Shown here: piece after piece, positions 2,114 to 36,090 of the stretch
Layout: each line of letters starts with the position of its first letter
Numbering within the stretch: the first letter of the stretch is position 1
Source of the DNA: Mycoavidus cysteinexigens
Lineage (GTDB): Bacteria > Pseudomonadota > Gammaproteobacteria > Burkholderiales > Burkholderiaceae
Assembly (NCBI GenBank): GCA_031963365.1
Contig: JASSUF010000001.1
Coordinates: 1-48,677, forward strand
Direction of reading: 5' to 3'
DNA: 48,677 nt
Position numbers and translations under genes: made by a program
Notes under the pieces: model-generated
What the model was told of the DNA's origin: nothing
Database searches by the model: none
What the model saw: the letters and a program-made list of their open reading frames with translations, nothing else

Positions 2114-2198
<85 letters not shown>

Positions 2199-2230
2199 AA
2201 AAATTTTTCACTGATCGTCAAGTTTTATCC

Positions 2231-2267
2231 AAACCCCGAGAATTCATAAGGATCCTCGGGGTTTTTG
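2231..2267 (+). terminator. Rho-independent terminator after tRNA-Leu (phage-supplied surrogate)
   Basis: ccccgag (2234-2240) pairs with ctcgggg (2255-2261), followed by tttttg. Resembles the displaced native hairpin at 36125-36159. Confidence 0.7.
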
Positions 2268-2311
2268 TTGTTAGCTTTTATCTTATTTTTTTATTGACTG
2301 CACAGGAAATT

Positions 2312-2360
2312 GGGGGGATATTCGGGGGTACAAAAAACACTGCAGCAAATTTATACCCCC
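2312..2360. promoter_or_regulatory. Putative integrase arm-type binding repeats (GGGGGTAT-like), attL side
   Basis: gggggatat (2313), gggggtaca (2324) and inverted tataccccc (2352-2360) lie just upstream of int. The same motif is repeated twice at 35992-36012. Confidence 0.45.
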
Positions 2361-2361
2361 A

Positions 2362-3684
2362 ATGGATTATTCCATGCACCTAACTGATATAGCAGCACGC
2401 AATGCTAAGCCCAAAGACAAGCGTTACAAACTCGCTGATAGTGGAGGATTATTTCTAGAAGTGCTCCCCGCTGGCGGGAAATATTGGCGCATGAAATACC
2501 GGAGCGATGGCAAGGAAAATTGCCTAGCGTTAGGCGTCTACCCTAAAGTAACACTTGCTCAGGCTCGCGCAGCACGCGACGCTGCAAAAAAGCAAATAAC
2601 TGATGGCGTAAATCCTGCCCATGAAAGAAAAAAGAAAAAATATCAAGCTTCTGTGAAAAAGGCACATTCTTTTAAAGCCATTGCAGAAGAATGGCTAGAA
2701 AAGCGCGAAGATGACTGGTCTAAAGATTACGCTCAAAAAAAGCGAGACATATTAGAAAAAGATATTTTTCCTTCACTTGGTCCATTCTCTATCGCAGAAA
2801 TTACGGCAGCAGAACTATTACCCGTAATACAAAAAATTGAGAAGCGAGATGCATTAGAAACTTCGCGCAAAGCTTTACAAACTTGCGGACAAATTTTCCG
2901 GTATGCCATAGCAACCGGTCGAGCCAAGCGTAATCCATCGCCAGACTTACGGGGCGCACTTAAAACTCGCTCAGTCAAACATATGGCACGCATTAAAGAA
3001 TCTAACTTTCCAGAGCTTTTGCACAAAATTTCGGAGTACGCAAATAGCCATGAATCAAAAGGAGAGCCATTGACGGAGCTAGCGCTTGATCTAATGACAC
3101 TGACCTTTGTGCGCACTACTGAGTTGCGGTTTGCAGAATGGAGTGAGATTGATTTTAAAAAGCAAGAATGGCGCATCCCTGCTGAAAAAATGAAGAAAGA
3201 CCGCGAGCATGTTGTACCCTTGAGTAAACAAACTCTTACTATTTTGCAAAAATTACGCGCATTAACCGGTAAATATCAATGGCTTTTTCCAGGGGCACGA
3301 TCAACTAAAACGGTAATGAGTGAAAATACCATTCTGTATGCGTTATATCGCATGGGATACCATAGTCGAATGACTGGACATGGTTTTCGTGGGCTAGCGT
3401 CTACGATCCTGAATGAGCATGGTTTTGATAAAGATTGGGTCGAGCGGCAGTTGGCCCATGAGGATGAAGACGAAACACGGGCTGCGTACAATCATGCTGA
3501 ATATTTACCACAGCGCCGCTATATGATGCAGTGGTGGGCCGATTACCTGGATAGAAGAATGGCAGAAAACTATCCAGAGCACGGCAAAGAAAGGTTTATA
3601 GAGTGCGACCCTGATGTGGAAGCAAGGTTCATAGCCCCTCCTCCGCCCGTTGTTCCTCTGTTTGGTAATTGGCCGGGTCTTTAA
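2362..3684 (+). CDS. int: Tyrosine integrase, P4-like (DUF4102-type N-terminal arm-binding domain)
   Basis: N-terminus LTDIAARNAKPKDKRYKLADSGGLFLEVLPAGGKYWRMKY. Catalytic-domain motifs RTTELRFAEW, HGFRGLAST and AAYNHAEY. Adjacent to the tRNA att site. An alternative start at 2374 is possible. Confidence 0.9.
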   Translation: MDYSMHLTDIAARNAKPKDKRYKLADSGGLFLEVLPAGGKYWRMKYRSDGKENCLALGVYPKVTLAQARAARDAAKKQITDGVNPAHERKKKKYQASVKKAHSFKAIAEEWLEKREDDWSKDYAQKKRDILEKDIFPSLGPFSIAEITAAELLPVIQKIEKRDALETSRKALQTCGQIFRYAIATGRAKRNPSPDLRGALKTRSVKHMARIKESNFPELLHKISEYANSHESKGEPLTELALDLMTLTFVRTTELRFAEWSEIDFKKQEWRIPAEKMKKDREHVVPLSKQTLTILQKLRALTGKYQWLFPGARSTKTVMSENTILYALYRMGYHSRMTGHGFRGLASTILNEHGFDKDWVERQLAHEDEDETRAAYNHAEYLPQRRYMMQWWADYLDRRMAENYPEHGKERFIECDPDVEARFIAPPPPVVPLFGNWPGL

Positions 3685-3850
3685 AATAGCGATGTAATTC
3701 CCGGTTAAGCCAAACCGAGCAGCGTTGCGATAAATGTATGCGTTTAGGGAAGCGCCCTGCAAGCTCATAATTGCGAAGTGCGCTTCTACTAAAAGATAGA
3801 TAGTGTTTAAGGCCGTTCCAGCTAATAAAACCATCTAATGGTAAAGCCAT
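3629..3850 (-). CDS. AlpA/Xis-like small DNA-binding protein (putative excisionase)
   Basis: Internal Met start at 3850. Motif LSFSRSALRNYELAGRFPKRIHLSQRCSVWLNRELHRYF is typical of the AlpA/MerR-type phage HTH. Convergent with and overlapping the int 3' end. Confidence 0.6.
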   Translation of the reverse strand: MALPLDGFISWNGLKHYLSFSRSALRNYELAGRFPKRIHLSQRCSVWLNRELHRYFKDPANYQTEEQRAEEGL

Positions 3851-3986
3851 AGGTTCCGAGCAAATTTCAGCGGACTGTCCAACTAAGGGTGAAAGCAATG
3901 CTTTTTTCTGAAAGGTCATAGTTTCTATCTCAAAGAGAATATACATTCTGGGCCCACTACATATTGCTTAAGTGCAAATAATAGAT

Positions 3987-5068: not shown

Positions 5069-5201
5069 GGTAGGTTGGGGTGAGGTACGAACCCCAACAT
5101 GCATACCACTTACCTGTAATCATCGCTTTTGACATGCGTATGCAGGTTTTCAAAGGATAGTGGCGTGCATATTGGGGTTCCTTCGTCACCACCAACCTAC
5201 C
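5069..5201. repeat. Family-2 REP/BIME-like inverted pair, copy inside the prophage
   Basis: Units ggtaggttgg..gaaccccaacatgcataccac (5069-5109) and gtggcgtgcatattggggttccttcgtcaccaccaacctacc (5160-5201) match the units at 39628-39769 and 41450-41557. Confidence 0.8.
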
Positions 5202-5700: not shown

Positions 5701-5705
5701 ATCGC

Positions 5706-6410
5706 CTAACTGGCTTTCTTGATAGTGGTTGAATCTTTGGCTGGTTTCGTGGTCGTTTCATTCTGAAAAAGCAATGGACGCCGCTGGAAAGGCTTAGGTG
5801 CAGCAGTCTTTACGGGTTGGGCTTTTGTGTGCTGCCCTAATACTTCTGCAATCCCTATGAGCTGCTCGATTTGTTCTGATGACAGCTCCTTAATAGCGTG
5901 TAAGAGCCGTTGCTTGGTGGTCGAGGTAGAGGGAATAGCATTTTGCGGCGCAGGAGGTAATGCGCTTTCCTGCCCGGTGACCAACCACCCTTCGTTCACT
6001 CCTAATACCGCAGCGAGTTTTGCGCTTTCTCGGCTGCGCTTATTACGCCCTTGTTCCAAATGTCCAATAGCGGTTTGACTCATGTCTGCTGCGTCTGCAA
6101 GCTCTTGCTGAGATAAGCCGCGTGCCATGCGCGTTGCTTTCAATCGAGAAGCAAAACTCTCTGTATCGGCAGATGCATGCTCTGTAGCAGGATCGGCGGA
6201 CGATACTTCTTTCATGCCTGTGGCTAACCATCTCAGGCTGATGCCTAACGCAGAGGCGATTTCAGGGAATCGCCACCCACTACGTACTTTCCCATTCTCT
6301 ATACGTGCAATGACCTCAGGATCTATGCCTGTTTTTTGGGCAAGTTCTTCCGGCGACCAACCACGGGCCGTGCGAGCTTGCATAAGACGAGAAGCGAAAT
6401 TATTACTCAT
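5706..6410 (-). CDS. Prophage repressor with two tandem XRE-family HTH domains (CI-like)
   Basis: Start at MSNNFASRL. Two HTH_3-like units (FASRLMQARTARGWSPEELAQKTGIDPEVIARIENG and FASRLKATRMARGLSQQELADAADMSQTAIGHLEQG). Divergent from a Cro-like gene. No S24 peptidase motif seen. Confidence 0.8.
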   Translation of the reverse strand: MSNNFASRLMQARTARGWSPEELAQKTGIDPEVIARIENGKVRSGWRFPEIASALGISLRWLATGMKEVSSADPATEHASADTESFASRLKATRMARGLSQQELADAADMSQTAIGHLEQGRNKRSRESAKLAAVLGVNEGWLVTGQESALPPAPQNAIPSTSTTKQRLLHAIKELSSEQIEQLIGIAEVLGQHTKAQPVKTAAPKPFQRRPLLFQNETTTKPAKDSTTIKKAS

Positions 6411-6514
6411 GTAATAAATACTACACGGTATTTGCAAATACTACTAGTAGATTTTTTCTCAGTTAAGCAGTATTGTGCTGATAGTATTATACTATTTAAC
6501 CTACTACACTCACT
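6411..6514. promoter_or_regulatory. Divergent immunity-switch region with repeated operators
   Basis: aaatactaca (6416-6425) and aaatactact (6436-6445) are 20 bp apart. Inverted agtatt half-sites are at 6469-6474 and 6483-6488. The region lies between the divergent repressor and cro-like genes. Confidence 0.6.
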
Positions 6515-6712
6515 ATGAATGCTCAGGAAATCGTTTTAGCGCTTCGCGCGCAAGGATGGCGGCAACAAGCTATTGCCAGGCGCGTTCGTCTTTCGCAAGG
6601 GGCGATCAGCCATATACAGCAAGGTCGCGGAAAAGACGTAATGGCCTCGACTTATCAGCGCTTATTGAAATTATATGAATCTGTGGTGAATGCACCGTCT
6701 ATCACGCAGTAG
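6515..6712 (+). CDS. Cro-like small HTH regulator
   Basis: 65 aa with RQQAIARRVRLSQGAISHIQQG as HTH. First gene of the rightward early operon. Confidence 0.65.
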   Translation: MNAQEIVLALRAQGWRQQAIARRVRLSQGAISHIQQGRGKDVMASTYQRLLKLYESVVNAPSITQ

Positions 6713-6741: not shown

Positions 6742-7050
6742 ATGAAACAGACTGATTTTGAATTATATATGGATACCTGGCGCAAAGATGATGGATTGCG
6801 CAGTTGTTCTTTAGCGGCGCGTGGGCTGTGGGCAGATATGTTCATCATCATGCATGAGGCAAAACACTATGGTTTTCTAACGCTGAAGAATGGGCAGCCA
6901 CTTTATGCCACGCAGCTTTCTCGTATCACCGGCGTAGCGAAATCTACGCTAAAACGCCTCATTGCAGAACTGGAGCATGCGGGTGTTTTGTACCGTAATC
7001 TTAGTGGTCAACTCTATGCCAATTGCATGGTGAAACACTATGAAGCATAA
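6742..7050 (+). CDS. Phage early protein, possible winged-helix replisome-organiser N-terminal-like protein
   Basis: 102 aa with SD aaggag upstream. ATQLSRITGVAKSTLKRLIAELEHAGVL looks like a wHTH. Overlaps the next gene. Confidence 0.45.
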   Translation: MKQTDFELYMDTWRKDDGLRSCSLAARGLWADMFIIMHEAKHYGFLTLKNGQPLYATQLSRITGVAKSTLKRLIAELEHAGVLYRNLSGQLYANCMVKHYEA

Positions 7051-8146
7051 CTATGAAGCCGCTTTGGAGTTGCCAGATACATTGACGCCTGCAGAATGTG
7101 ATTTACGTGATTTTCCATTTATGCAGGTGGATGTCGCACGATTGCGCGATAGTGATCTCGCAGCGCTTGAAACGCCAGAAGCCTGTTGGGCGGCCATGTT
7201 GCTGTGGTGTGCGTCATGGCATCAAGTCCCTGCAGCCTCTTTGCCGGATGACGATAGGGTATTAGCGCGTATTGCAGGATATGGCCGTTGTGTCCAAGTC
7301 TGGAAAAAATTTAAAAAGGGGGCGCTACGTGGATTCGTAAAGTGTAGTGATGGCCGTTTGTATCACCCCGTGGTTGCAGAAAAAGCCAATGCTGCATGGA
7401 AGCTCAAACTGCAGCATAACTATGTCAAATTTGAAGGCCGCATGCGCAAGCACAATAAAAAACGTGCTGAGCAAGGGCGCACCATATTCAAGATTCTTTC
7501 TTTTGAGCAATGGCAACAGGCAGGCTACCCTGCTATGAGTCAGGAAGAAGAAGCAAAAACAGCTACATGTACTCCACCATCTTCCCATGCAGAGCAAAAA
7601 ACTTCTTTGAAATTGGTGAAGAATTCCAACGCTGCTCGAGAAGAGCATAGTTCTCTTTCCAGTGAAATTTCTAAAAATTCTTCTCATTCCGGTGGAATTT
7701 CAAAAAATTCCGCCGGAATTCCTTTGGAAAATGCTCTTAAAAGAGAAGGAGAGGGAGAAGGAGAAGGAAAGGGAGAAGGAGATTTATTTAAAAAACATTC
7801 CGTTCCTAACGGAACGGAGCAAAGCTCGCAATCCGGCTTGGATGCGCAAGATGCGTTGTTTCGTTTGGCAGTCCCGTGGTTGATTGAACGTGGGGTAATG
7901 GACCGCTCAGCGCGGTCTTTGTTGGGTGCGGCGGTTAAGCAGCTTGGGGCTATGGAGGCATGGGAATTAGCTCAGCGCTGTATGCAGGAAAAGCCGTTAG
8001 AGCCTGCGCAGTGGCTCGCAGCTGGCATTCAAGCACAGATGAAATCCACAAAACGCGTGGTAGGTCAAGCGGTAGGCAAGCAAGCTGCTCTAGAGGCGCA
8101 TAACCGCGAGATCGCAGCACGCCTGATAGCTGGGAGAGTCGGATGA
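7040..8146 (+). CDS. DUF1376 (YdaU-like) phage replication-associated protein
   Basis: N-terminal pattern DFPFMQVDVARLRDSDLAALETPEACWAAMLLWCASWHQVPAASLPDDD is typical of DUF1376. Low-complexity EGEGEGEGKGEGD linker. Confidence 0.6.
   Translation: MKHNYEAALELPDTLTPAECDLRDFPFMQVDVARLRDSDLAALETPEACWAAMLLWCASWHQVPAASLPDDDRVLARIAGYGRCVQVWKKFKKGALRGFVKCSDGRLYHPVVAEKANAAWKLKLQHNYVKFEGRMRKHNKKRAEQGRTIFKILSFEQWQQAGYPAMSQEEEAKTATCTPPSSHAEQKTSLKLVKNSNAAREEHSSLSSEISKNSSHSGGISKNSAGIPLENALKREGEGEGEGKGEGDLFKKHSVPNGTEQSSQSGLDAQDALFRLAVPWLIERGVMDRSARSLLGAAVKQLGAMEAWELAQRCMQEKPLEPAQWLAAGIQAQMKSTKRVVGQAVGKQAALEAHNREIAARLIAGRVG
7615..7820. promoter_or_regulatory. Candidate phage origin of replication inside the replication gene
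   Basis: Contains ggaattt-caaa-aaattcc and ggaattcc palindromes (7694-7722), a 44-nt pure polypurine tract (7739-7782), an AT-rich block, then the 8-bp inverted repeat tccgttcc/ggaacgga (7799-7818). Confidence 0.35.
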
Positions 8147-8346
8147 TCGAGCAAGATCGAGCGCCGTTTTTTGCATTGCTTGGTGATGTCTACGTACTGC
8201 ATGGCAAAGCATTATCCGAATCTACAGGCAACGCGTGGTGGAGTGTGATGAAAATTTTCGATTGGGAAGATGTGCACGTGGTGTTAGCGCGTCATCCCAT
8301 TGCCAGCACGGATAACTTGCAAAGTGCAGGAGAACAGCATGCATGA
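8143..8346 (+). CDS. Short paralogue of the N-terminal domain of the following protein
   Basis: The 67-aa FFALLGDVYVLHGKALSESTGNAWWSVMKIFDWEDVHVVLARH aligns with FFALLSDVFSFYRQDLSTFTGNIWWNAMQPFDFHAVHDALTRH of the next ORF. Start and stop overlap the neighbouring genes. Confidence 0.5.
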   Translation: MIEQDRAPFFALLGDVYVLHGKALSESTGNAWWSVMKIFDWEDVHVVLARHPIASTDNLQSAGEQHA

Positions 8347-9022
8347 TCGAGATCGGCCATCGTTTTTTGCCTTGCTCAGCGATGTTTTTTCATTCTATCG
8401 CCAGGATTTATCCACCTTTACCGGAAATATTTGGTGGAATGCAATGCAGCCTTTTGATTTTCATGCGGTGCATGATGCGTTAACCCGCCATTGTGTAAAC
8501 CCCGATAACGGGCAGTTTTTGCCTAAACCTGCTGATGTCGTGCGACTGCTGCAAGGCTCCACGCAAGATAGCGCGCTGATGGCTTGGTCCAAAGTCGAAG
8601 CCGCTATACGCAAAGTAGGCACGCATGTCAGCGTGACGTTTGATGATGCCTTCATTCAACAAGTCTTGCAGGACATGGGGGGATGGATTGCATTGGGGCA
8701 AAAGAAAGAACCCGATTGGCCCTTTGTGCGCAATGAATTTGTCAATCGCTATCGCGGATATCGCCAATTGGGTCCGCTGACCACTTGGCCTGCGGTGTTG
8801 GTAGGAGAGGCTGAGGCAAGTAATCAGTGCAATGGATTTAAAAGCGATCCGCCAGTGTTGATTGGCGATGTGAAAGGGGCGCAGCAGATTCAGGCTCATG
8901 GAACCCATTCAGGCTTGTTAACGGTTACTCGCCCAGATCAAAGCAGTTTTAAGCAACTGAGCGCTCCCGTTATAGCCGCTTTGCAAGCCCATCATGCCAT
9001 TTCCGAGGAGCAGCCAGCATGA
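8339..9022 (+). CDS. Phage replication accessory protein (helicase-loader-like by position; G39P-like resemblance uncertain)
   Basis: Start at MHDRDRP with SD ggag. Positioned after the replication organiser and before packaging genes. Confidence 0.45.
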   Translation: MHDRDRPSFFALLSDVFSFYRQDLSTFTGNIWWNAMQPFDFHAVHDALTRHCVNPDNGQFLPKPADVVRLLQGSTQDSALMAWSKVEAAIRKVGTHVSVTFDDAFIQQVLQDMGGWIALGQKKEPDWPFVRNEFVNRYRGYRQLGPLTTWPAVLVGEAEASNQCNGFKSDPPVLIGDVKGAQQIQAHGTHSGLLTVTRPDQSSFKQLSAPVIAALQAHHAISEEQPA

Positions 9023-16049: not shown

Positions 16050-16560
16050 TTATCCTATTGCATCAAGTACATGCATCTATTGCATAGATACATAACACCA
16101 ACCAAAAATCAGCCTCCTAGGTGTATGAATTTGAACATTTCTATCAGGCACTACTACCTAATACACTCAGGTCTTTTACTAGGAAATGTATTTTTAAAAA
16201 AATACCACCGTATTTAAAATACCGTGCACACTGCACTTTGTAAAAAATCTTTTACTTTGCAATCTGCAGACTGAATCGCTGGAAGCCGAGCGTCGCGTGC
16301 GGCAGCTGTGGGTTAAAAAAGTAAAGATTGCCCACCGCAATGTGTCGCTGTGATCGCCGGGGTCGCGTCCGGTAGCGCTTTTCTCATGCACTATTTATAC
16401 AAATAGTTTGCAATGGAGTTGTACCCTTGCAAGCGCTGTGAGCATTATTTTCCCGTGTGGCGTGCGGGGCCGGTGTGGAAAGTAGGCCGTTTATGACGTG
16501 CAGAATTTTTTCTCTGCGTGGCTAAAACGGTCATGGTGCTTTTTCCACTGGATACTCAGT

Positions 16561-23729: not shown

Positions 23730-23740
23730 AGGAGCGCCAC

Positions 23741-24466: not shown

Positions 24467-24492
24467 CAAATATTAATGACAAGAGGTGCTCT

Positions 24493-25227: not shown

Positions 25228-25240
25228 GTGGAGGAACCTT

Positions 25241-26467: not shown

Positions 26468-28194
26468 GTACAGAAAACAATCCCTTTGCGCAATTTGGAC
26501 AACAGCGGAGGCAGTCTGCTGCCCCATCACCCAATCCTTTTGCGCAGTTTGACACGATAGAAGCTGCCCCTATAGCAGAAACACCTCAACCTGCCGCATC
26601 GCCACATCTGAGTACAATGGTCAAAGGCTTACCGGCTGCAGCATTACAAGCGCATATTGAAGCAGGGCGAGGGCTTTTGCAGGGTCTATCAGATCCCGTA
26701 TGGGGTGGAGCGCAGGTTCTTGCCCATGGTTATGCCGATGTAGCAAAACACCTTGCCCCCCGTTCTCGTCATGCTGGGTGGGCAAAACAGCAAGTGGAGA
26801 AATTAGATCGTTTACTTTCAGAGCGGGAAGCAGACTATCAAGCTAAAACACCGGATCCTGTCACGGCAGGCATTTTTCGATTCGGTGGACAAATGGGGCC
26901 TGCGCTCTTTACGGGAGGAGCCAGCGCCGCACAGCGCGCTGCTCCATTGCTAAAAAAAATGGGCCATAGTGCTGCAATAAGTACGGCCGCCAGCACACTG
27001 CAACCCATTACTACCACCAACAGCCATTTCACGACGGAAAAACAGCAGCAAGCCCTGAACGGGGCCATTGCAGGAGGATTACTTCCCCTCGCTGGAGCAG
27101 GAATAGCCCGTATAGTCAGTCCCAAAGCGTCTCGTAATCCTGCTGTGCAGACTTTACTCAATGCAGGGGTAACACCGACCCCAGGGCGCATGCTCGGTGG
27201 AACCTTGGCTCAACTAGAAGATAAGCTTGCCAGTACACCGATATTAGGAGACGCAATTCGTTATCGGCAGCGTCAAGCTGTAGAAGAACTCAATCGTGCT
27301 GCCTATGCGCGGGTATTAGCGCCGATTGGCAAAATCCCCTCTAGCGATATAGGCAGAGAGGGGGTAGAACAACTTGCGCGCACGCTCTCTGAATCCTATG
27401 AGAAGCTGTTACCCCAACTCACCTTTCGGGCTGATGCCCCCTTTGTATTAGATCTGGTACGTATTCGAGAAAAAGCGGTCAGCCAGATGCCTATCTCACG
27501 TGCTAAACAACTGATACGTATCTTAGACGACCAGGTACGCAGAAAGCTCATCAAAACATCCTCCGTCATATCAGGGCGTCAAGTCAAACGGGTAGAAAGT
27601 GAATTGGGCATGCTCGCGGCGAAATATGGCCAAAGTGCCTCTGCCGATGAGCGTTTATTAGGTGGAGCGTTGGAAGATATTCATCGTGCATTACGCCATG
27701 CGCTAGAAAGAACGAATCCTGACCATGCTGAACAACTCGCGAATATTAATCGCGCATACGCGCACTATGTACGTATACGCAATGCAGCAAGCCGATTAGG
27801 CGCAAAAGAAGGCGTATTTACCCCTTCGCAACTTGCTGCTGCAGTACGTTCTACAGAAACCAGTAGAGCTAAAGGCAATTACGCACGAGGGCGAGCGTTA
27901 ATGCAAGATTTATCCGATGCAGGCGTACACGTGCTCGGCCCAGGCTATCCGGATTCTGGCACTGCAGCGCGCCTTTTATGGGGTGCAGGAACCCTAAGCA
28001 GCGGCGCTATTCTGCCGCAGATTCCTGCATCGTTAGTGGGGCTAAGTGCACCGTATTTACCCGTATTAAATCGCTTAACCGCTTATGCGCTAGCCAAAAG
28101 GCCTGCATACGCTGATCAATGGGCAAAAGCGTTACGAGCTCTTCCTCCTGCGATCAGTTGGCCTATAGGATCCCAAGCAGGGCAAAAGAGATAA
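26464..28194 (+). CDS. Large internal virion/ejection protein (putative)
   Basis: 576 aa with ATGA-type overlap with the preceding gene. Last structural gene before the lysozyme. Confidence 0.4.
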   Translation: MSTENNPFAQFGQQRRQSAAPSPNPFAQFDTIEAAPIAETPQPAASPHLSTMVKGLPAAALQAHIEAGRGLLQGLSDPVWGGAQVLAHGYADVAKHLAPRSRHAGWAKQQVEKLDRLLSEREADYQAKTPDPVTAGIFRFGGQMGPALFTGGASAAQRAAPLLKKMGHSAAISTAASTLQPITTTNSHFTTEKQQQALNGAIAGGLLPLAGAGIARIVSPKASRNPAVQTLLNAGVTPTPGRMLGGTLAQLEDKLASTPILGDAIRYRQRQAVEELNRAAYARVLAPIGKIPSSDIGREGVEQLARTLSESYEKLLPQLTFRADAPFVLDLVRIREKAVSQMPISRAKQLIRILDDQVRRKLIKTSSVISGRQVKRVESELGMLAAKYGQSASADERLLGGALEDIHRALRHALERTNPDHAEQLANINRAYAHYVRIRNAASRLGAKEGVFTPSQLAAAVRSTETSRAKGNYARGRALMQDLSDAGVHVLGPGYPDSGTAARLLWGAGTLSSGAILPQIPASLVGLSAPYLPVLNRLTAYALAKRPAYADQWAKALRALPPAISWPIGSQAGQKR

Positions 28195-28197
28195 TGA

Positions 28198-28629
28198 ATG
28201 ATGGAGATCTTGAATTATCCCCGCTTAAGGGAAGAGCTCATACGTGATGAAGGGGTTCGATTTAAGCCTTACCGCGATAGTAGAGGGTATCTCACGATCG
28301 GCACAGGCCGTAATCTGGATGCGATCGGTATCAGTCAGCAGGAAAACGATCTAATGCTCGATAACGATATTCAGCGCGCCGCGCATGATTTAGATCAGCA
28401 TTGCCCGTGGTGGCGCACACTGGATGCGGTACGGCAGCGTATCTTAATGAACTTGTGTTTTAATTTGGGTATTGCCAAACTATTGCAATTTACTCAAACC
28501 CTGCATGCTACCCAGCAAGGCGCTTATCCACAAGCTGCCATACATATGCTGGATTCTGCATGGGCGCGGCAAGTGAAAGAACGAGCATTACGGCTAGCAC
28601 ATGGCATGCGCTCTGGAGTCCTAGGATGA
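28198..28629 (+). CDS. Endolysin, T4-lysozyme-like (GH24)
   Basis: LIRDEGVRFKPYRDSRGYLTIGTGRNL catalytic-region motif (E...D...T). 143 aa. Confidence 0.88.
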   Translation: MMEILNYPRLREELIRDEGVRFKPYRDSRGYLTIGTGRNLDAIGISQQENDLMLDNDIQRAAHDLDQHCPWWRTLDAVRQRILMNLCFNLGIAKLLQFTQTLHATQQGAYPQAAIHMLDSAWARQVKERALRLAHGMRSGVLG

Positions 28630-29135
28630 TAAGTGCACTATGGCGTTGGTTTAGTGGTTCACGCCTGGTAGGGGCTATGCTAGTAGGCATCGCTATAGGG
28701 GGATATACCGCTTGGCATATACAAGCCCTTCGTTACGAGGTGCGATTAGCCCGTCTACAAGCTAACATGCTTCACGCCCACCAAATACAAGATGACATTG
28801 CCACACACACAGAAACCACAACCCATGCCAATCTTAGCGCCATTGAAGATCAAGCACGCCGCCTCACCAGCCAGATTCCACGCTATATGGATTCAGACGA
28901 TACTCTGGCTCAGTCTGTGCCTCCTAGCTTCGTGTACCTGTACAACGCCGCTTTCACCGGCGCTACTCCCTCCACCTCCACACGCGCTGATGATCGATCC
29001 TCCCGCATTTCGTTTACTGAACTTGCCGATGCCCACATCACCAACGCCAGCATCTGTCAACAATGGCGAGAACAGGCATTAGCTTGGAGAACATTTTATC
29101 AACAGTTGCGTGACGCTCAAGAGGTGAGACGCTGA
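28626..29135 (+). CDS. i-spanin (Rz-like)
   Basis: ATGA overlap with the lysozyme. N-terminal TM LVGAMLVGIAIGGYTAW, then coiled coil. Contains an embedded +1 frame lipoprotein ORF. Confidence 0.7.
   Translation: MISALWRWFSGSRLVGAMLVGIAIGGYTAWHIQALRYEVRLARLQANMLHAHQIQDDIATHTETTTHANLSAIEDQARRLTSQIPRYMDSDDTLAQSVPPSFVYLYNAAFTGATPSTSTRADDRSSRISFTELADAHITNASICQQWREQALAWRTFYQQLRDAQEVRR
28825..29082 (+). CDS. o-spanin (Rz1-like lipoprotein) embedded in Rz +1 frame
   Basis: Lipobox LLAS|C (Cys codon at 28933). Mature part is Pro-rich (PLSPALLPPPPHALMIDPP). Lies entirely within the Rz gene. Start uncertain (28792 or 28825). Confidence 0.6.
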   Translation: MPILAPLKIKHAASPARFHAIWIQTILWLSLCLLASCTCTTPLSPALLPPPPHALMIDPPAFRLLNLPMPTSPTPASVNNGENRH

Positions 29136-29223: not shown

Positions 29224-30432
29224 TTAGGCCAGAGCATGTACATTTGCAGCTACGTAAGAGGACTCACTTGAATCCGTATAGCCGGATGCAGACATGTCAC
29301 TATCCCCTTCTGTAGACGAAGAGCCATGCTCGTCCAATGTGGGCATTACAAGAGCATTTTCCACAGGAGGCTGGGGAAGAGGAAGAGAAAGCGATTGTGA
29401 AGGGTCAAAATCTTGGTGTAGCGGCAACGTTGGATTCATCGGCACCCTATCTATAGAGTTCGTTAGAGAAGTGGACTGAGTACCTGCCTGAAGGAGTGCG
29501 GTATCGCTGCCATTTTCCTGATGACGGTTACTTTGACTGGTAACCTGGCTACTGCTATGACCTTGCTCAAGAGCATGTAATCGTTCAGAGAATGCATTAA
29601 GTTGAGCAAGCAAATTTTGGTTTATTAACTGCTGCTGTTGATTTGTTTGCCTTAATTCTGCAATTATTTCTCCACTTTGCTTGACTTCTATTCTTAATTG
29701 CGCATTAAGGCTCTTCAATTGTTTAACTTCATTTTCTAATTGTTTATTTTGATTTCTTAATTTTGTATTTGCATTTGTATTTCTTAATCGCGTATTTTTG
29801 TTTTGTAATATTCCGTGAGGCTCTTCTGAAGTTTTGATGCGATTATTTAATTTCGCTACTAACATCTCACTTCCAGCAGCAGTATTGGATGCGGTTTCAC
29901 TGACTACGGTTTGGGTTACGCTTCCCACCCCTGTTTGCGGTACTTCAAAAGGTGCAAGTGCAGTTTCTTCGATTTCAAGGCGGTATGGCATTTCGCTGCT
30001 TGGAACAGATAGAGTACTGTTGTTTTGATTTGCTGGTTCTATATCAGCATTTCCTTCGCCAATACTCACTGTTGGGGCAATAATAGCGCTAGCTGCTGTC
30101 GTATTGGATTCAGTAACATGGGCCGCAATGGCACCAATAGGAGGCGAGGTTTCTGGTCTTTGACGAGGTAAGGGTGCAGTTTGTTTGGCTTCAAATTTTT
30201 CTGACGCCATCGGGTTTGAGGTGAATGTTTTTTTACTATTCTGGTCTTCTATTGGGAGTTGTGCTATATAGGCAACGCTGGATCCACCAAGAAGGGTCGC
30301 GGCAACAGCAGCGCCGCCCGCTATCGTAGTGCTTGATCCAGAACCCGCAGCTGTGATAGCGGCGGCGGCCGAGGCGCTTCCCATTTGTGATAACACAGCA
30401 AATGCACCAATTCCAGCAAGAGGTAATGGCAT
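29224..30432 (-). CDS. Cargo protein: N-terminal Ala/Gly-rich double hydrophobic segment + Gln/Asn-rich coiled coil + Ser/Asp/Glu-rich tail
   Basis: SD ggag. LAGIGAFAVLSQMGSASAAAAITAAG and IAGGAAVAATLLGGSSVAYIA. Heptad region LRNQNKQLENEVKQLKSLNAQLRIEVKQ...LLAQLNAFSERLHALEQ. Confidence 0.6.
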   Translation of the reverse strand: MPLPLAGIGAFAVLSQMGSASAAAAITAAGSGSSTTIAGGAAVAATLLGGSSVAYIAQLPIEDQNSKKTFTSNPMASEKFEAKQTAPLPRQRPETSPPIGAIAAHVTESNTTAASAIIAPTVSIGEGNADIEPANQNNSTLSVPSSEMPYRLEIEETALAPFEVPQTGVGSVTQTVVSETASNTAAGSEMLVAKLNNRIKTSEEPHGILQNKNTRLRNTNANTKLRNQNKQLENEVKQLKSLNAQLRIEVKQSGEIIAELRQTNQQQQLINQNLLAQLNAFSERLHALEQGHSSSQVTSQSNRHQENGSDTALLQAGTQSTSLTNSIDRVPMNPTLPLHQDFDPSQSLSLPLPQPPVENALVMPTLDEHGSSSTEGDSDMSASGYTDSSESSYVAANVHALA

Positions 30433-30820
30433 AGATCACTCCAGTGAGTACGTGTTTATGAAATACTTTTCAGCTTTGCGTCGCTTTTAAGTTTTACAGA
30501 AAACCTCATTGGCTAGAACTACATCTGCATATGCTGCTTGGAATAGCATGTACCTAATAAAATAATGGCCAAGACAAAAAATATTAATACAGTGATCTAG
30601 CAGGGATAGGTTTAATCAATCTCTACTGCTTATCAGCGCAATGACGGATACCCAATAGAAGAAAAAATATCCAAAGTATTCAGATAAAGGTATTGCTCCT
30701 ACATCTACCTCGTTTGCAGGCGATAAAAGCGACTCCTGCGCAATACCATAAAGTTAAAAAACGATAAGCAGTATCCGGCCAAGACCTGTTAATAACCAGC
30801 TGGCTTTGTGGACCCAAACT

Positions 30821-32467
30821 ATGGACCGTATCACGCCTATTCCTTCTCCAACACTTCCTGCAACCGCAGCTAAACCCATCGCCTGCGAAGATGCCCTATG
30901 GGTTCCGCTCCCTGAGCAAGATGTAATAGAGCGCAATAGCCTTATTGCTATCGAAGCATGGCAAAAGCTATTTACTGATTTGCCGCTTGAAATAGTGTCA
31001 ATAATTTTTACAGAAACATTATTTGGTCTAACGCTCAATGAAATATTGAATATTGCAGAATATCAAAGAGGGAAACTCAAACCTGAGGCTTGGTCCGCAC
31101 TCTATAAAGCTAGTATTTTTTGTTTTGGCTCAATAGAAGAGCTATCAGAGTGGCTCTCTAATCCTAAACAGTTTCGGAATTTTGTCGAAGATGCGCAAAA
31201 ATACGGAGATAAAACCCTGCGGCAAATCTTTTATGGATTACAACTGCTGGAAAAAACAAAAGACTCGATAACCATTGAAGATTGTATGCGTGCTGGAATG
31301 ATAGATAGAGAGCGTATCTGTTCAGAAAATGCATTACCAAGTATTAGGGGCGAGCAAGATTTTTTATCGTGGCTCTGTGGAAAAAAAGCGCGTATAGTAA
31401 TTTGTTTACGTTGGCTTCCTGCGCAAACCCACAATCCTGAAGCTCGTAATCCTGATTTACTAGAAGAAGCAGTAAAACAAGGTAATTGCACGATAGTAAA
31501 GCAAGTATGCGCCTATATGAAAAAGCATAGGCTGCATGATGGGGCTGTCCTTCACCCATGTCGAAATGCATTATGGAGAGCGGTTATTGATAATGATGTC
31601 CCAATAGCACAATATTTATTCGACGAATTTCCAGATTTTCGGTTCACTCAAGGTCTTCTACAAATTTCTGCAGCAGAAGGATGTTTGCCTATGGTTCAAC
31701 TGCTTATAGAAAGAAAAATAGAAATTAATGAACTAGATGACTATCAAAAAACGGCCTTGCAGACAGTAATAGGTACCTTCTATCCATATCAGCTTTCTCC
31801 TTCATATTGGTTAGGATTTGATGAGGAGGGGCGTCAAAAAACCCTCGATCAATTAGATGTGATTATTTTTTTACTGCGTCAATATGTTGATAAAGGACTT
31901 GATTTTGATATTAACTGGGAATTGCAAGAACAAAATACTTTTTTGCATATGGCTTGTTATGTGCAAAACCCTGACTCTGCAGAATGGTTAGCACAGTTTA
32001 TATTGGAACAGCAAAAGGATAAAAACCTGTTCGATACTCAAAATGAAGATGGGAAAACGCCTTTCATGTGTGCATTAGAGGCTGATAATTACCCTATGTA
32101 TACTTTTTTGCAAGAACAGCAGGCGAAGCGAGTGTTAGGAACCGAGAGATTTCCCCTTCTTTCTCGAGAAGAGTTTCAAGCTTTACGAACAGCGTCGAAT
32201 AGAACATCCTCAACGCCACCTTCCACAAAGCCCGTCTTGCCTGCTTCCACTAGTATTCAAAACGACCCTCCTGTTGCTGTTCAGCCTCGCATTACAGCTT
32301 CCTATGCACCTTCTGCGCAAGAGATCTCTTGGCTACACACATGGGTGCAAGCCTTTGTTGATTTATCAAAATATCTGCTCACGATGGTGTTCTTTATTCC
32401 CCGTACTTTGTATGTCTTCTACCTCAATGTCATACAAGCTTGGATAAGTAGAGTGAGTGAAAGGTAA
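30821..32467 (+). CDS. F-box + ankyrin-repeat protein with C-terminal hydrophobic anchor
   Basis: F-box LFTDLPLEIVSIIFTE. ANK-like units (LLEEAVKQGNCTIVKQVC, ALWRAVIDNDVPIAQYL, LLQISAAEGCLPMVQLLIERKIEINELDDYQKTAL, NEDGKTPFMCALEADNYPMYTFL). C-terminal YLLTMVFFIPRTLYVFYLNVIQAWI. Confidence 0.75.
   Translation: MDRITPIPSPTLPATAAKPIACEDALWVPLPEQDVIERNSLIAIEAWQKLFTDLPLEIVSIIFTETLFGLTLNEILNIAEYQRGKLKPEAWSALYKASIFCFGSIEELSEWLSNPKQFRNFVEDAQKYGDKTLRQIFYGLQLLEKTKDSITIEDCMRAGMIDRERICSENALPSIRGEQDFLSWLCGKKARIVICLRWLPAQTHNPEARNPDLLEEAVKQGNCTIVKQVCAYMKKHRLHDGAVLHPCRNALWRAVIDNDVPIAQYLFDEFPDFRFTQGLLQISAAEGCLPMVQLLIERKIEINELDDYQKTALQTVIGTFYPYQLSPSYWLGFDEEGRQKTLDQLDVIIFLLRQYVDKGLDFDINWELQEQNTFLHMACYVQNPDSAEWLAQFILEQQKDKNLFDTQNEDGKTPFMCALEADNYPMYTFLQEQQAKRVLGTERFPLLSREEFQALRTASNRTSSTPPSTKPVLPASTSIQNDPPVAVQPRITASYAPSAQEISWLHTWVQAFVDLSKYLLTMVFFIPRTLYVFYLNVIQAWISRVSER
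30968..31105 (+). other. F-box motif region of the ANK protein (aa ~50-95)
   Basis: LPlEIvsiIF then LtLnEILniae. Weaker second half than in the two LRR proteins. Confidence 0.55.
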
Positions 32468-32631: not shown

Positions 32632-34074
32632 TTACCCTAATTTATTTATTAATTTTGCTATTAACTCATCTTTCTGAGCCAGTTGTTCTTTTAGTCGTGC
32701 ATTTTCCGCTATCAAATCAGCATCTGGGCTAGAAGAGGCAGAACGAGAGACGAGAAGTTGTTTGACTTCGTCCAGCTCTTTCTGCAATTGAGCAGCGCCA
32801 TTATTGAAGGCAGTAAAAATGTGATCTTGTTGCGCACCAATGGCCGACTTAATATCTTTAACTTGATCAGTGCTCATTTTTAATACACCTTTACCTTTTA
32901 ATACTTTGAGTAATGCGGGGAGAATCTTATCCCTTAATTGTATACGAATAAGATTCTCCTTTCCAAATTGTTCGTTTTTTTGTATCTCTCTAACAGGAGT
33001 GAAGGCTGAAGGGAGGTTGAGGAAGGCGACAATGTTTCCTCCTACCAAAGGAATAAAAGCAATAAGTGTTTTAAGCGTAGCAAACCAAGCGGCGAAAGTC
33101 GTCCATTTCTTGCGAGCTTCGTCTTCTTGCTTTTGGATAGTATCGAAGTACGCAGCTTGTGCTTGAGCCAATTTATCAAATGGCAGCCATAACTGATCAG
33201 TAGAAAGCCATACAGATTCCGTAGATTCTTCTAAAGAGTTAGAACTTGCCCCACTCTCGATGATAGAAGGGGTTATCAAACGGCCATTATGGTCCTCAGA
33301 GGGTAAAATTTCACTTATTTTACGAGGAAGGCGCACTCCTTGAGAAGGATGTAACAATAGCTCTGGGTATCGCCATAAAGAAGAAAGCGTCTCTTGGATT
33401 TCAATACGAGTACGATGTATAAGTGAAGCATCTGCGCAGAGCTGCTGCATAGATACATTACGCTGACCTTCATTTCTATTTGCAAGGATATGCTCTGTAA
33501 AGAGAGCATCTAACGAATCTTTGGCTTCTTCTAATGCTTTTTTGGCCGATTGACCGTAATTATTTAATGCATCGCTACCTGGTTTGATAAGCGCCATGCC
33601 CATCTGCGACGCAGATTGCGCTTTTGTCGCAGGCTTTTTATGGCCAAGGAGCCAATAGGCATGAGCACGTGATTTACTCAGTGATCCATCTGGTTCAAGC
33701 TGCGCAATACGGGTATCGATCTGCTGACTAGTTAAAGAATACAGCGTTTTTTCATACGCTGTTTTAGCCTTAGCCGCTTTATTTGAGCGATACTCTTCCA
33801 TATGACGTCTAGAAGAATGTAATAGCGCATTCTGCGCTTTCAGGGCTTTGAGAGACCTTTCTATTTGACTAGGGACAAAAGAACAAAATGGCTCACAGAG
33901 ATGCGCTAATGAAGTAGTAGGAATATGTTTGCCAAATAGTGGATGCCCTTTCTCAAATACGGGTAAATTTTCTTGGAATTCTGGAGGATCTTGTAGCGTG
34001 AGCTCAACACAGGCGGCCTGCGAGGAAAAGATCGCATGATCTATGGGTATTCCACCTGCGCCAGTAATTCGCAT
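32632..34074 (-). CDS. Cargo protein: large helical protein with internal hydrophobic hairpin and C-terminal coiled coil
   Basis: SD aggag, 480 aa. FAAWFATLKTLIAFIPLVGGNIVAFLNLPSAF. C-terminal LIAENARLKEQLAQKDELIAKLINKL. Confidence 0.6.
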   Translation of the reverse strand: MRITGAGGIPIDHAIFSSQAACVELTLQDPPEFQENLPVFEKGHPLFGKHIPTTSLAHLCEPFCSFVPSQIERSLKALKAQNALLHSSRRHMEEYRSNKAAKAKTAYEKTLYSLTSQQIDTRIAQLEPDGSLSKSRAHAYWLLGHKKPATKAQSASQMGMALIKPGSDALNNYGQSAKKALEEAKDSLDALFTEHILANRNEGQRNVSMQQLCADASLIHRTRIEIQETLSSLWRYPELLLHPSQGVRLPRKISEILPSEDHNGRLITPSIIESGASSNSLEESTESVWLSTDQLWLPFDKLAQAQAAYFDTIQKQEDEARKKWTTFAAWFATLKTLIAFIPLVGGNIVAFLNLPSAFTPVREIQKNEQFGKENLIRIQLRDKILPALLKVLKGKGVLKMSTDQVKDIKSAIGAQQDHIFTAFNNGAAQLQKELDEVKQLLVSRSASSSPDADLIAENARLKEQLAQKDELIAKLINKLG

Positions 34075-34261: not shown

Positions 34262-34286
34262 GGCGATCTAAAAAAAGCCATGTTAA

Positions 34287-35252
34287 TTAGGCTAGATCCT
34301 CAATAGATTTAAGCACTATTCGAGCCTGCTCTAAAGGGATGCCTGATTTGGTGAGAGCTTGCTTTAAAATCTCCTTGGAAACGTAATCAGCATGGTTAGC
34401 AGACTGCACTTGTTGGGCTGCCTTGACTTCCGCTAGCTCACGCTGCATGTTTTGCATTATTCGATTCATATTTTCAATTTTGTTATTAACACTCATATTG
34501 TTTCTCAACGATTCTTCTAATTGGGCTACAAATTGATTAAAAAGATTTTTGTGTTTATTAAGGTGAATACGCCGCTCACCTTCTATCTGCGCAATTAAAA
34601 ATCGATAAAACTGCACATATACCGAGATAAACACAAAGCATTTCCCAAACAGAGCCGCCATGCTTGCTGAAATCGCCAATGCGATACACAGTTGCGCGCA
34701 AAGCGGTGCAATAAGGGGCATTAAAATCAAGGTTGCTGTAAACAAAAATACAAAACGACTAGTTTTTTGTTCCTCCGATTCAACCTTAAATTCCTCGTAG
34801 CACTTGGCAAATTTCAGCATGACTTTATGCAAACACGCTAAATTGGCTTCAATTTGGCTGCTTTCTTCAGGTGATAAAGCAATTTCCTCCGTAGTTACTA
34901 ATCCATCAGGCAAGGGAGGCATCTCTGATTGAATGCTGATGCCTTTTTCTACCCACTGCATAAGCGGCTGACAGGCTTTAGCGAAGTTAGAAAGCACGGC
35001 TGCGAACTTGGCCTCCTCCACTTCTGATAAACCTCGGCCGCAATACCAGTTATCTTCCTTCAATACAGTCTTTATGCACGTCCATTGCTCTGAAACTTGT
35101 TCATACAAACTGCACTCTGGTTCGATAATTTCTGGATCGATAAAGCCGCATTCAGATTGGCTTTTACTTTCAGTAACAGCGGGGCTGGGAAAAAAAGGAA
35201 TGTTGAATGTTGAGATGCCTCTTGCCTGCAAAGTGTGCAGGAAGGAAGACAT
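34287..35252 (-). CDS. Cargo protein with central bilobed hydrophobic domain and C-terminal coiled coil
   Basis: SD gggagg. FVFLFTATLILMPLIAPLCAQL-CIALAISASMAALFGKCFVFISVYV, then LEESLRNNMSVNNKIENMNRIMQNMQRELAEVKAAQ. Confidence 0.6.
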   Translation of the reverse strand: MSSFLHTLQARGISTFNIPFFPSPAVTESKSQSECGFIDPEIIEPECSLYEQVSEQWTCIKTVLKEDNWYCGRGLSEVEEAKFAAVLSNFAKACQPLMQWVEKGISIQSEMPPLPDGLVTTEEIALSPEESSQIEANLACLHKVMLKFAKCYEEFKVESEEQKTSRFVFLFTATLILMPLIAPLCAQLCIALAISASMAALFGKCFVFISVYVQFYRFLIAQIEGERRIHLNKHKNLFNQFVAQLEESLRNNMSVNNKIENMNRIMQNMQRELAEVKAAQQVQSANHADYVSKEILKQALTKSGIPLEQARIVLKSIEDLA

Positions 35253-35648
35253 AGCATTTCCTCCCTAGCGCAGTGCAGATAAATAAGGGCTGATATAACA
35301 ACCCCGCCAGAGGGTTATCAAACAGGAAAGCAACGGGTGACTTCGAGAGACAGAAAGCCGGGAAGAAGTTGTTAAACGTCTATAAGCTTTGAGATACGGG
35401 GGATAAATAAAGGAACAGAAACCCATTGGAGGGTCTGGATACGAGCGTAGGTAGTACATTGCAACTCCTAGAGGAGAGTTTCAATTCCCTACCAACCTTC
35501 GCTATCAACCAAAGGGTGGCAGGACCGAGCGAGGTTGATAGACCGGCCTCTAGACCAGTGAGCCGTACGGCTCCCACACTCGGCCCCACCATAAACGGGA
35601 CTGACATAGAGGAACGGAGCTATCAACCTCCGGCTACCTTTTGGTAGC
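35253..35648 (-). ncRNA. Long structured 5' leader (or independent RNA) upstream of the 321-aa cargo gene, class unknown
   Basis: ~396 nt with no convincing ORF between a near-consensus promoter and the gene's SD. Several long-range perfect complementarities (see findings). Confidence 0.4.
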
Positions 35649-35654
35649 GCATTG

Positions 35655-35683
35655 ACTATTACAAATTTATAAGATTTTGTCAA
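35655..35683 (-). promoter_or_regulatory. Sigma70-type promoter (minus strand)
   Basis: On the minus strand: TTGACA (35683-35678), 17-nt spacer, AATAGT (35660-35655). Confidence 0.5.
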
Positions 35684-35991
35684 ACACAATAAAAAAAGGG
35701 GCAATTTCGATGTTTGCACACCATCACACTGCCTAGGAATCGAGGAACATAAGCAGTTTTGAAACGCTGAAAACGGAGGGTACTCCGATAGAAATGCTTA
35801 GCGTAAATTTACCCCGCTTTTTCATGTGGCTAGGCTAACCTTGTTTACTAAAGTAGGTATGAGAAGTAAAAAAACTGCTAGACTAGATGTAACGGCAGCC
35901 TCTACTGCTTTTTATAAGGTCGCCACTGTATATTTGCTGTGAAACAAATTTTAAAAGTAATAATGGCAACATTCTTGTAGCAAATTTTTTT

Positions 35992-36012
35992 GGGGGTATA
36001 TTTGGGGGTATA
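35992..36012. promoter_or_regulatory. Putative integrase arm-type repeats, attR side
   Basis: gggggtata at 35992-36000 and 36004-36012 (12-bp phasing). Same motif as the attL-side cluster. Confidence 0.45.
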
Positions 36013-36074
36013 AATTATACTCACTGAAGAATGAGCCCTTTATTTATATGAATTTCGTCTTTAAATGTGTATCT

Positions 36075-36090
36075 TCTTCCGGGTACCAAA
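36075..36090. repeat. attR core (tRNA-Leu 3' fragment)
   Basis: Exact copy of 2185-2200. Confidence 0.85.

Follow-up and report, generated by a model that had tools for sequence, protein, structure and literature searches.

The 48,677-nucleotide (nt) window described here, from contig JASSUF010000001.1 (GCA_031963365.1), contains a 33.9-kb prophage that lies between 16-bp direct repeats (2185-2200 and 36075-36090) and carries seven cargo genes, c1 to c7, besides its own. The element is an intact-looking temperate, podovirus-like prophage, inserted by a tyrosine integrase at the 3' end of a tRNA-Leu(CAG) gene. This gene (2114..2198, + strand), the only tRNA that ARAGORN detects in the window, was the target of integration and is still intact. 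The attL core, TCTTCCGGGTACCAAA (2185..2200), overlaps the 3' end of the tRNA, of which it comprises the last 14 nt followed by two more nt, and the identical 16 nt form the attR core at 36075..36090. No other match of at least 12 nt exists between the 3' region of the tRNA and the remainder of the window. The integrase gene thus adjoins direct repeats that duplicate the end of a tRNA gene, the arrangement expected of integration into such a gene. A 13-nt motif, ATWTTYGGGGGTA, occurs three times in the window (2318-2330, 35986-35998 and 35998-36010; 0.21 occurrences expected by chance). One copy, ATATTCGGGGGTA, stands beside attL (2318-2330) and two stand beside attR (35986-36010), all directly inside the two att sites, and none is found elsewhere in the window; these copies are candidate arm sites of the integrase. 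A GC-rich hairpin followed by a T-run (CCCCGAG...CGGGGTTTTT) is present in similar copies after attL (2235-2265) and after attR (36128-36158), so that the phage seems to supply a replacement terminator for the interrupted tRNA-Leu gene.

The original prediction for this stretch, made without database searches, was of a complete phage between 16-bp att repeats at a tRNA-Leu gene, and it holds: the repeat is exact, ARAGORN finds the tRNA and all modules are found. Profile searches agree with its reading of the integrase and excisionase, immunity, replication, large terminase (TerL), portal, capsid, fibre and lysis genes, the small terminase (TerS) and the scaffold being placed by position only. 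The tyrosine integrase (2362..3684, +; phrog_1, E 6.5e-66) is followed by an excisionase-like protein (3629..3946, -; phrog_2790, E 4e-7), and the immunity region consists of a cI-like repressor (5706..6437, -; phrog_4, E 6.6e-28) and a Cro-like regulator (6515..6712, +; phrog_6831, E 1.7e-14). The genes that come next are on the + strand. They begin with a replication module of three open reading frames (ORFs) (7040-8146, 8143-8346 and 8300-9022, together 7040..9022; phrog_22470, E 3e-44; phrog_10105, E 5e-69), and continue with the putative TerS (9019-9396), TerL (9397-10815; phrog_979 and phrog_2, E about 1e-31), the portal (10794-12716; phrog_12082) and the gene in the scaffold position (12732-13778). 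The major capsid protein (16498..17607, probable start 16561; phrog_9953, E 2.6e-36) is Mx8-like. Downstream of it are a tail fibre (17951-19243, by profile search), a fibre assembly protein gene, a holin (19691-19981, by profile search), an adaptor-like gene (19968-20600) and a 461-amino-acid (aa) virion gene (20606-21991); for this group there are also Pfam tags on the orthologues in the sister prophage described below. A block of late genes (23313..29135) includes a 576-aa protein and, by profile search, an internal or ejection-like protein (25175-26467), an endolysin (28198-28629) and a spanin (28560-29135); Pfam gave no matches for the unassigned tail and internal genes. The holin gene lies between the fibre-assembly and adaptor-like genes, 8 kb ahead of those for endolysin and spanin (28198-29135); the lysis cassette is therefore split, as it is in the sister prophage. 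The best phage-database matches of TerL and capsid are to Xanthomonas, Microcystis and Myxococcus phages, all below 50% identity; TerL matches Xanthomonas phages best, at 46%.

The set of lysogeny, replication, packaging, virion and lysis genes is undisrupted, with TerS and several tail genes assigned by position only, and the full-length prophage ORFs align end to end and collinearly with distant relatives. The + strand gene chain is compact: its genes overlap by ATGA at four junctions and at the others overlap slightly or are separated by short gaps, much as had been described for the late genes. The exceptions are two large gaps, one of 1868 nt and one of 1321 nt, which are occupied by c2 and c3 on the opposite strand.

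The seven cargo ORFs are found at three sites. At the first (13841-16049), c1 (13841..14692, +) contains a hydrophobic hairpin of ~50 aa, at residues 170-221 of a 299-aa ORF that starts at 13793, and c2 (14742..16049, -; 34% guanine plus cytosine, GC) has a predicted F-box-like N-terminus followed by a solenoid of leucine-rich repeats (LRRs) of the ribonuclease inhibitor (RNI) type. The second site holds c3 (22006..23169, -; GC 31%), a divergent member of the same putatively F-box-like/LRR family. The third (29224-35252) holds c4 (29224..30432, -), an orphan with an Ala/Gly-rich N-terminus, a central coiled coil and a Ser-rich tail; c5 (30806..32467, +), with ankyrin repeats, the N-terminal sequence LPLEIVSIIF and a moderately hydrophobic C-terminal segment; c6 (32632..34074, -), with a coiled coil and a hydrophobic hairpin at residues 326-356; and c7 (34287..35252, -), with a hydrophobic hairpin at residues 164-223 and then a coiled coil. 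By hydropathy, c1 and c7 each have one hairpin of 50-60 residues and the hairpin of c6 is shorter; c1 and c7 are also weak paralogues (BLASTP E 4e-8). Their hairpins (c1 170-221, c7 164-223) have the form of a bilobed hydrophobic domain of ~40-60 residues, as in Inc proteins. Heptad-like segments are seen in c4, c6 and c7, with weak coiled-coil Pfam matches in c4 and c6. Four of the cargo genes had been described as encoding membrane or coiled-coil proteins; the hairpins of c1, c6 and c7 are clear, and in c4 hydropathy finds no strong transmembrane segment, only the weakly hydrophobic Ala/Gly-rich N-terminus.

This cargo is foreign to the phage. Its GC content is 31-46%, compared with ~51% for the phage backbone, and none of it has a convincing PHROGs family or a PADLOC defence model; the expectation that seven genes without phage function sit at module junctions is borne out. 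The search for backbone relatives free of cargo gave the same picture. Eighty contigs in IMG/VR have related capsids (up to 73% identity), and their genes for TerL, portal, scaffold, capsid, fibre and tail are in collinear order; the portal and the scaffold-position gene are conserved in 74 of them, and homologues of c1-c7 in none of the 80. Separate scans of IMG/VR with c3 and c5 found nothing. In 17 of these relatives 3-15 bp separate the counterparts of 20606-21991 and 23313-23729, the two genes that flank c3, whereas the distance in the window is 1322 bp. Scans for promoters and terminators in the cargo regions returned numbers no different from chance and were not used.

A much closer relative is present in an NCBI metagenome-assembled genome (MAG), GCA_031963225.1, where a 29-kb contig (locus L163) contains a sister prophage with the same gene order. 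Backbone proteins of the two are mostly 90-98% identical (72-98% overall; capsid 97%) and the DNA is ~90% identical (88-92%). The L163 contig ends before the third cargo site (c4-c7), and its counterpart of c1 is 85% identical. By blastn, the aligned stretches are 5206-7562 (89.6% DNA identity), 7717-14553 (91.7%), 16181-21993 (91.3%) and 23341-26147 (88%). Two intervals show no DNA similarity: slot 1, which holds c2 (14554-16180, with flanks at ~91%), and slot 2, which holds c3 (21994-23340). In L163 both slots are again filled by antisense genes of 31-33% GC that belong to the c2/c3 family, with VPIEVLIKIL and FPTELMEIIF at the position of the N-terminal motif. The slot-1 protein of L163 (P0108) is only 26% identical to c2, and the 337-aa product of its slot-2 gene 21% identical to c3. 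In BLASTP comparisons c2 scores 97.8 bits against the relative P0016 and 72 bits against P0108, while P0108 scores 109 bits against P0016, 108 bits against P0034 and 81.6 bits against c2. Both slot-1 alleles thus have closer relatives among the chromosomal paralogues than in each other, which favours cassette replacement over divergence in place. Accordingly, the slots appear to turn over by replacement of whole cassettes from paralogues elsewhere in the genome, and if so, the phage would both spread and diversify these genes.

Ratios of nonsynonymous to synonymous substitution (dN/dS) were calculated by the Nei-Gojobori method between the window and L163, at dS 0.2-0.5. Across TerL, portal, capsid, holin and tail genes they are 0.02-0.1 (capsid 0.028, the 20606-21991 gene 0.041, TerL 0.047, holin 0.053, portal 0.066); the value for c1 is 0.41. 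Low ratios in virion genes indicate purifying selection while the two copies diverged, and they point to a phage that remained functional until recent times, if not longer. Such selection for virion function is difficult to reconcile with the view that the prophage is a domesticated or decaying, immobile element, whose cargo would be ordinary chromosomal effector genes with no present-day lysogenic conversion or spread. The presence of all modules with full-length ORFs, their collinearity with distant relatives, and the intact integrase, excisionase, att cores and arm-site motifs speak against that view as well. Nonetheless, it accounts for several observations that weigh against a mobile phage. 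A copy of a dispersed host repeat, resembling a miniature inverted-repeat transposable element (MITE) and designated family A, has inserted in the early region of the prophage (5069..5201), which implies some residence time in the bacterium. Cargo gene families also occur at chromosomal, non-prophage sites, and metagenome scans with backbone proteins gave no related contig. Finally, no attP and no empty attB was found: among 80 Burkholderiaceae loci none has a tRNA-Leu beside pcnB, and the MAG loci examined have no tRNA. Taken together, an immobile remnant is rather improbable, and a phage that has stayed under selection, and that may still be inducible today, is the reading carried forward here.

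The MITE-like repeat is palindromic and ~130-190 bp long, with the core GGTAGGTTGG...GAACCCCAACATGCATACCAC; further copies are in host intergenic DNA at 39606-39791 and 41426-41558. Many copies are present in loci L161, L162 and L164 of GCA_031963225.1 and GCA_031963005.1, and none was found in 80 Burkholderiaceae loci or in 80 viral loci. A second family of dispersed repeats, ~120-140 bp long, is represented at 3-119, 36198-36338 and 47144-47290. Its copy at 36198-36338 has an internal palindrome, is immediately to the right of attR and overlaps the upstream, TTG-extended part of the pcnB ORF. The ORF 47161-47745 (194 aa) contains four repeats of ~34 nt (47537-47645), with spacing that alternates between 21 and 33 nt; in the Mycoavidus locus L012, a weak homologue of this ORF (40% identity over 68 aa) adjoins panB.

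The original prediction singled out three cargo proteins, c2, c3 and c5, as fusions of an LPxE-type F-box motif to LRR or ankyrin repeats. In the six-frame translation of the window, 97,350 residues in all, the pattern LPxE[ILV]xxx[ILMV][ILFM] has exactly three matches (0.125 expected), and only in these proteins: at residue 52 in c2 (LPNEIALQIF, 52-61), at residue 49 in c3 (LPTELVSMIL, 49-58) and at residue 59 in c5. The repeats are equally clear, since c2 (LRR_6, 27 bits; cut-off 23.4), c3 (LRR_1, 22.6 bits; cut-off 20.6) and c5 (Ank_2, 53.2 bits, E 4.6e-14, and Ank_4, 48.8 bits, above the cut-off) all pass Pfam. The best match of c2 among sequences in the Protein Data Bank (PDB) is ribonuclease inhibitor (E 1e-6), which assigns its LRRs to the RNI type. 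A eukaryote-like character of the cargo, with RNI-type LRRs and ankyrin repeats, is thus supported at the level of protein sequence. Those best matches of c2 that are outside its own family cover only the LRRs, and no eukaryotic donor is detectable.

Whether the shared motif marks an F-box is a separate question, and for c2 and c3 the answer comes from their family. A word-indexed homologue search with c2 returned only c2 itself, and one with the family alignment added only LRR-only proteins; the family was recovered only through an exhaustive HMMER search. This search yielded four full-length relatives, P0108, P0034, P0016 and P0094, which can be aligned to c2 and c3 beginning at the motif, although the alignment of the family is too divergent for pattern scans. 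BLASTP also joins c3 to the family (E 2e-7 against P0034, E 6e-6 against P0108). Pfam F-box matches below the threshold recur in independent members, with E 0.0014-0.03 for c2 and E 0.005 for P0034 ('FSNLPPEILSIIVEFLS'; 17.2 bits). A 314-aa protein adjoining P0034 in its MAG (L162:652-1596) has both the motif and ankyrin repeats, and its F-box score of 23.9 bits exceeds the Pfam cut-off of 20.5. When a profile of seven family-type N-termini was compared with the PDB, four of the best five matches were F-box proteins (FBXO42, Dia2, Cdc4 and FBXO4), aligned on the F-box. A profile made from the N-termini of c2, c3 and c5, for which the MAFFT alignment was poor, gave only chance matches, such as antithrombin, and was set aside.

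Structural modelling of c2 agrees with this. An AlphaFold2 model from the c2 sequence alone reached a predicted local distance difference test score (pLDDT) of 42 and was discarded; the model from a six-sequence alignment has a pLDDT of 72.5 and a predicted template modelling score (pTM) of 0.70. In this model the LP motif is followed by helices at 55-68, 72-81 and 83-95, a linker helix, and a solenoid of strands and helices from 128 to 430. The arrangement of a motif helix and two further helices before the repeat domain would thus be present in c2 and, by the family alignment, in c3; in c5 there is the motif alone. In a Foldseek search with the c2 model, FBXL17 from its SKP1 complex ranks second (E 6.5e-8, 405 aligned columns, nearly full length), with a score that is driven by the LRRs.

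The same proteins might act as eukaryote-directed effectors without mimicking parts of an SCF ubiquitin ligase. The LPxE N-terminus would then be a helical cap, a membrane-association helix or an export signal, and the LRR and ankyrin domains would act through simple binding or sequestration. Much of what weighs against an F-box is what such proteins would be expected to show. No protein in the window attains a Pfam gathering score for PF00646 or PF12937: c2 reaches 14.5 bits for the F-box-like family at full length and 18.8 bits as an N-terminal fragment (cut-off 24.3), and 12.9 bits for F-box (cut-off 20.5), while c3 and c5 have no match up to E 10. Neither c2 alone nor the three window N-termini retrieved an F-box protein when searched against PDB sequences, and the F-box matches of the seven-sequence profile are weak (E 0.11-1.2) and come from a profile that includes the MAG protein that passes Pfam. 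Residues 51-100 of the c2 model have a pLDDT of only 57-68, family members carry variable insertions after helix 1, and the Foldseek matches of c2 are mostly LRRs of RNI and NLR proteins without an F-box, the LRRs dominating the comparison. The likeness of c5 to the family is confined to 15 residues at the motif (hhalign probability 8.8%), and this stretch is also the most hydrophobic 19-mer of c5. What counts against simple binding is the F-box identity of four of the five best profile matches, aligned on that very region, together with the rank of FBXL17 and the protein of a neighbouring lineage that has the same motif and exceeds the Pfam cut-off. Effectors without SCF mimicry are therefore unlikely, although they are the most serious competitor. 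An F-box-like fold for c2 and c3 is quite probable from the family profile and the model, and an F-box-like N-terminus of c5 is unproven. Thus, of the three proposed F-box/repeat fusions, the repeats and the restriction of the motif to these three genes stand, and the F-box itself is likely in two of them, below the Pfam threshold in c2, without a Pfam match in c3 and represented by the motif only in c5.

The genes outside the att repeats (ilvI, pcnB, folK, panB, ilvA, radA, dadX, lplT and thiD) are housekeeping genes of the host bacterium. Synteny of pcnB-folK-panB fits Burkholderiaceae, at ~55-66% amino-acid identity, with Mycoavidus giving the best matches for folK and panB, and the ~47% GC of the flanks is low for this family. 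By these genes the bacterium is a low-GC member of the Burkholderiaceae, and presumably a Burkholderia-related endobacterium of Mortierellaceae fungi. A chlamydial host, which had been guessed from the Inc-like hairpins, was ruled out by the same flanking genes. The bacterium very probably lives in a eukaryote, as had been proposed with an amoeba or other protist in mind. A fungal host is likelier than an amoeba, since the MITE-like repeat and the phage are shared with MAGs of an accession series that includes 'Mycoavidus cysteinexigens BRE-AV005' (prefix JASSUI, bracketed by the MAG prefixes JASSUD, JASSUK and JASSUL), and the flanks are of Burkholderiaceae; that the fungal assignment draws on accession adjacency and shared repeats counts against it. 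Literature searches for the MAG accessions and for Mycoavidus together with F-box returned nothing, and exact-match look-ups of c2 and of PanB gave no record. Mycoavidus genomes are reported to be unusually rich in intact prophages and to encode components of a type III secretion system (PMC5877345).

Relatives of the cargo have a narrow distribution. Members of the c2 family and P0003, the only homologue of c7 (45% identical, chromosomal in GCA_031963225.1), are restricted to GCA_031963225.1, GCA_031963005.1, GCA_031963045.1 and one raw sequencing run. In the related MAGs, genes for large HEAT-repeat proteins (>800 aa at L161 69-2492 and 940 aa at L165 6330-9152) adjoin the c7 homologue and fragmented genes of the F-box-like/LRR type, which suggests chromosomal clusters of eukaryote-like repeat proteins. 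At L162 652-3468 (GCA_031963225.1), the F-box and ankyrin gene that passes Pfam lies beside a gene with a Toxin_15 domain and a gene of >1000 aa; this stretch, near the chromosomal P0034, is a candidate effector island. In the window itself, outside the prophage and between ilvA and radA, a 194-aa coiled-coil orphan ORF (41629-42213, -) is located in a GC island of 37-42%, part of a low-GC region at 41000-43000. No Pfam, PHROGs or NCBIfam family matches it, and it may be a further chromosomal gene of the effector-like kind.

This distribution helps to decide whether the cargo is directed at a eukaryote at all. Prophage morons typically act on the bacterium or on other phages, and c1-c7 could in principle be superinfection-exclusion or abortive-infection factors, with LRRs that bind phage or bacterial targets. 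Their moron positions, beside the lysis genes and near attR, would suit such a role, small membrane proteins are common exclusion factors, and nothing in the window, neither a secretion system nor a signal, indicates export, a point that also tells against eukaryote-directed action. However, the cargo lacks PADLOC and PHROGs matches, and in the chromosomal clusters that contain its paralogues the neighbours are ankyrin, HEAT-repeat and Toxin_15 genes, not defence genes. Relatives are detectable only in the endosymbiont lineage (c2 and c7 were searched directly, c3 via the c2 family). Moreover, in the viral structure library BFVD the fold of c2 is matched almost entirely by proteins of giant eukaryotic viruses, of which several carry an F-box annotation; the top 50 include a single phage protein, a weak tail-protein match at rank 49. 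A function at the level of bacterium or phage is consequently very unlikely, and the eukaryote-directed reading is retained.

The explanation that we favour, with a probability of roughly 58%, is that a temperate prophage carries eukaryote-directed effectors, among them F-box-like/LRR proteins that divert SCF ligases, and that these act in the fungal host. The lysogen would express the cargo apart from the late operon, c2 and c3 from antisense, low-GC cassettes of their own and c4-c7 from the stretch that separates the lysis genes from attR, where morons are classically located. Cargo proteins would then be exported into the fungal cytoplasm, where the LRR and ankyrin surfaces might bind fungal proteins while the F-box-like N-terminus docked Skp1/Cul1 and so diverted SCF ubiquitin ligases. 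The hairpin proteins could insert into host-facing membranes.

The closest precedent is phage WO of Wolbachia, which has a eukaryotic association module (EAM) with F-box-related PRANC and ankyrin genes (PMC5062602). In both cases a temperate phage of an intracellular bacterium carries a block of eukaryote-like genes with ankyrin repeats and an F-box-related domain, and phage haplotypes differ in their cargo. The two are unrelated in sequence, the backbone here being that of a podovirus-type phage of a betaproteobacterium with an Mx8-like capsid; the likeness is, at the sequence level, conceptual and not ancestral. Unlike in WO, the cargo here is spread over three sites, two of which are single-gene antisense cassettes that interrupt the virion operon. 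In place of PRANC, latrotoxin or NACHT it has an N-terminal F-box-like motif with RNI-type LRRs, in a family confined to one lineage, and the host eukaryote is presumably a fungus, not an arthropod. Because WO already has F-box-related PRANC and ankyrin genes, the novelty that had been claimed for three F-box genes on one phage must be tempered: the motif is indeed in three genes, the F-box is only partly supported, and a precedent exists (PMC5062602).

Among eukaryotic adaptors of the FBXL type (Skp2, FBXL17, Grr1), the model of c2 suggests the same succession of an LPxE-type helical motif, a linker and a curved LRR solenoid; it differs in its sub-threshold Pfam F-box score and in its RNI-type LRRs with repeats of 28-29 residues. 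Bacterial F-box effectors include AnkB, LegU1 and LicA of Legionella, GALA of Ralstonia and VirF of Agrobacterium. The pairing of an F-box-like motif with LRRs in c2 and c3 recalls Ralstonia GALA, and c5 recalls Legionella AnkB in its N-terminal F-box-type motif, its ankyrin repeats and a C-terminal element of membrane association. Unlike AnkB, c5 lacks a CaaX box, its last residues being ...QAWISRVSER, and a hydrophobic segment takes the place of the box. Its PDB matches are only designed ankyrins and AnkX, and it shows no homology to the bacterial F-box effectors listed. We know of no phage location for AnkB, LegU1, LicA, GALA or VirF, whereas the cargo here is phage-borne. Chlamydial Inc proteins are effectors of the vacuole membrane with a bilobed hydrophobic domain; c1 and c7 are similar in having a single hairpin of 50-60 residues flanked by soluble or coiled-coil regions, and differ in that they show no homology and belong to another phylum. 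In the APSE phages of Hamiltonella defensa, toxin cassettes are polymorphic. These phages share with the present one a conserved backbone with a fixed locus, at which eukaryote-directed cargo differs between variants. They differ in that their cargo consists of toxins, whereas that found here consists of adaptor-like repeat proteins, and in that there are two slots here, both inside the structural operon.

The main interest of the locus, more than the three F-box genes first proposed, is the combination of a phage backbone under purifying selection and effector slots whose alleles are unrelated between sister phages. Few known phages of intracellular bacteria carry eukaryote-directed genes, mainly WO in Wolbachia and APSE in Hamiltonella, and the effectors that sustain the symbiosis of Burkholderia-related endobacteria with fungi are largely unknown. 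In the related genus Mycetohabitans, the TAL-like effectors are the one secreted family known (PMC11261895). The locus supplies concrete candidates, in the form of F-box-like/LRR, ankyrin and hairpin-membrane proteins, and ties them to a phage that could move them between strains. Near-identical phages with unrelated slot alleles offer a natural experiment on effector turnover in relation to host-fungus specificity, and the phage is a candidate genetic tool for bacteria that are hard to manipulate. The most far-reaching interpretation, which we advance tentatively and hold at somewhat less than an even chance, is that this is an active phage lineage of fungal endobacteria, with exchangeable mimics of SCF adaptors in two antisense slots of the virion operon, plus ankyrin and membrane effectors, and that it spreads and diversifies effectors that act on fungal ubiquitination. 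If true, it would be the counterpart, in fungal symbiosis, of the EAM of phage WO, with a cassette-swapping mechanism that has not been described for WO.

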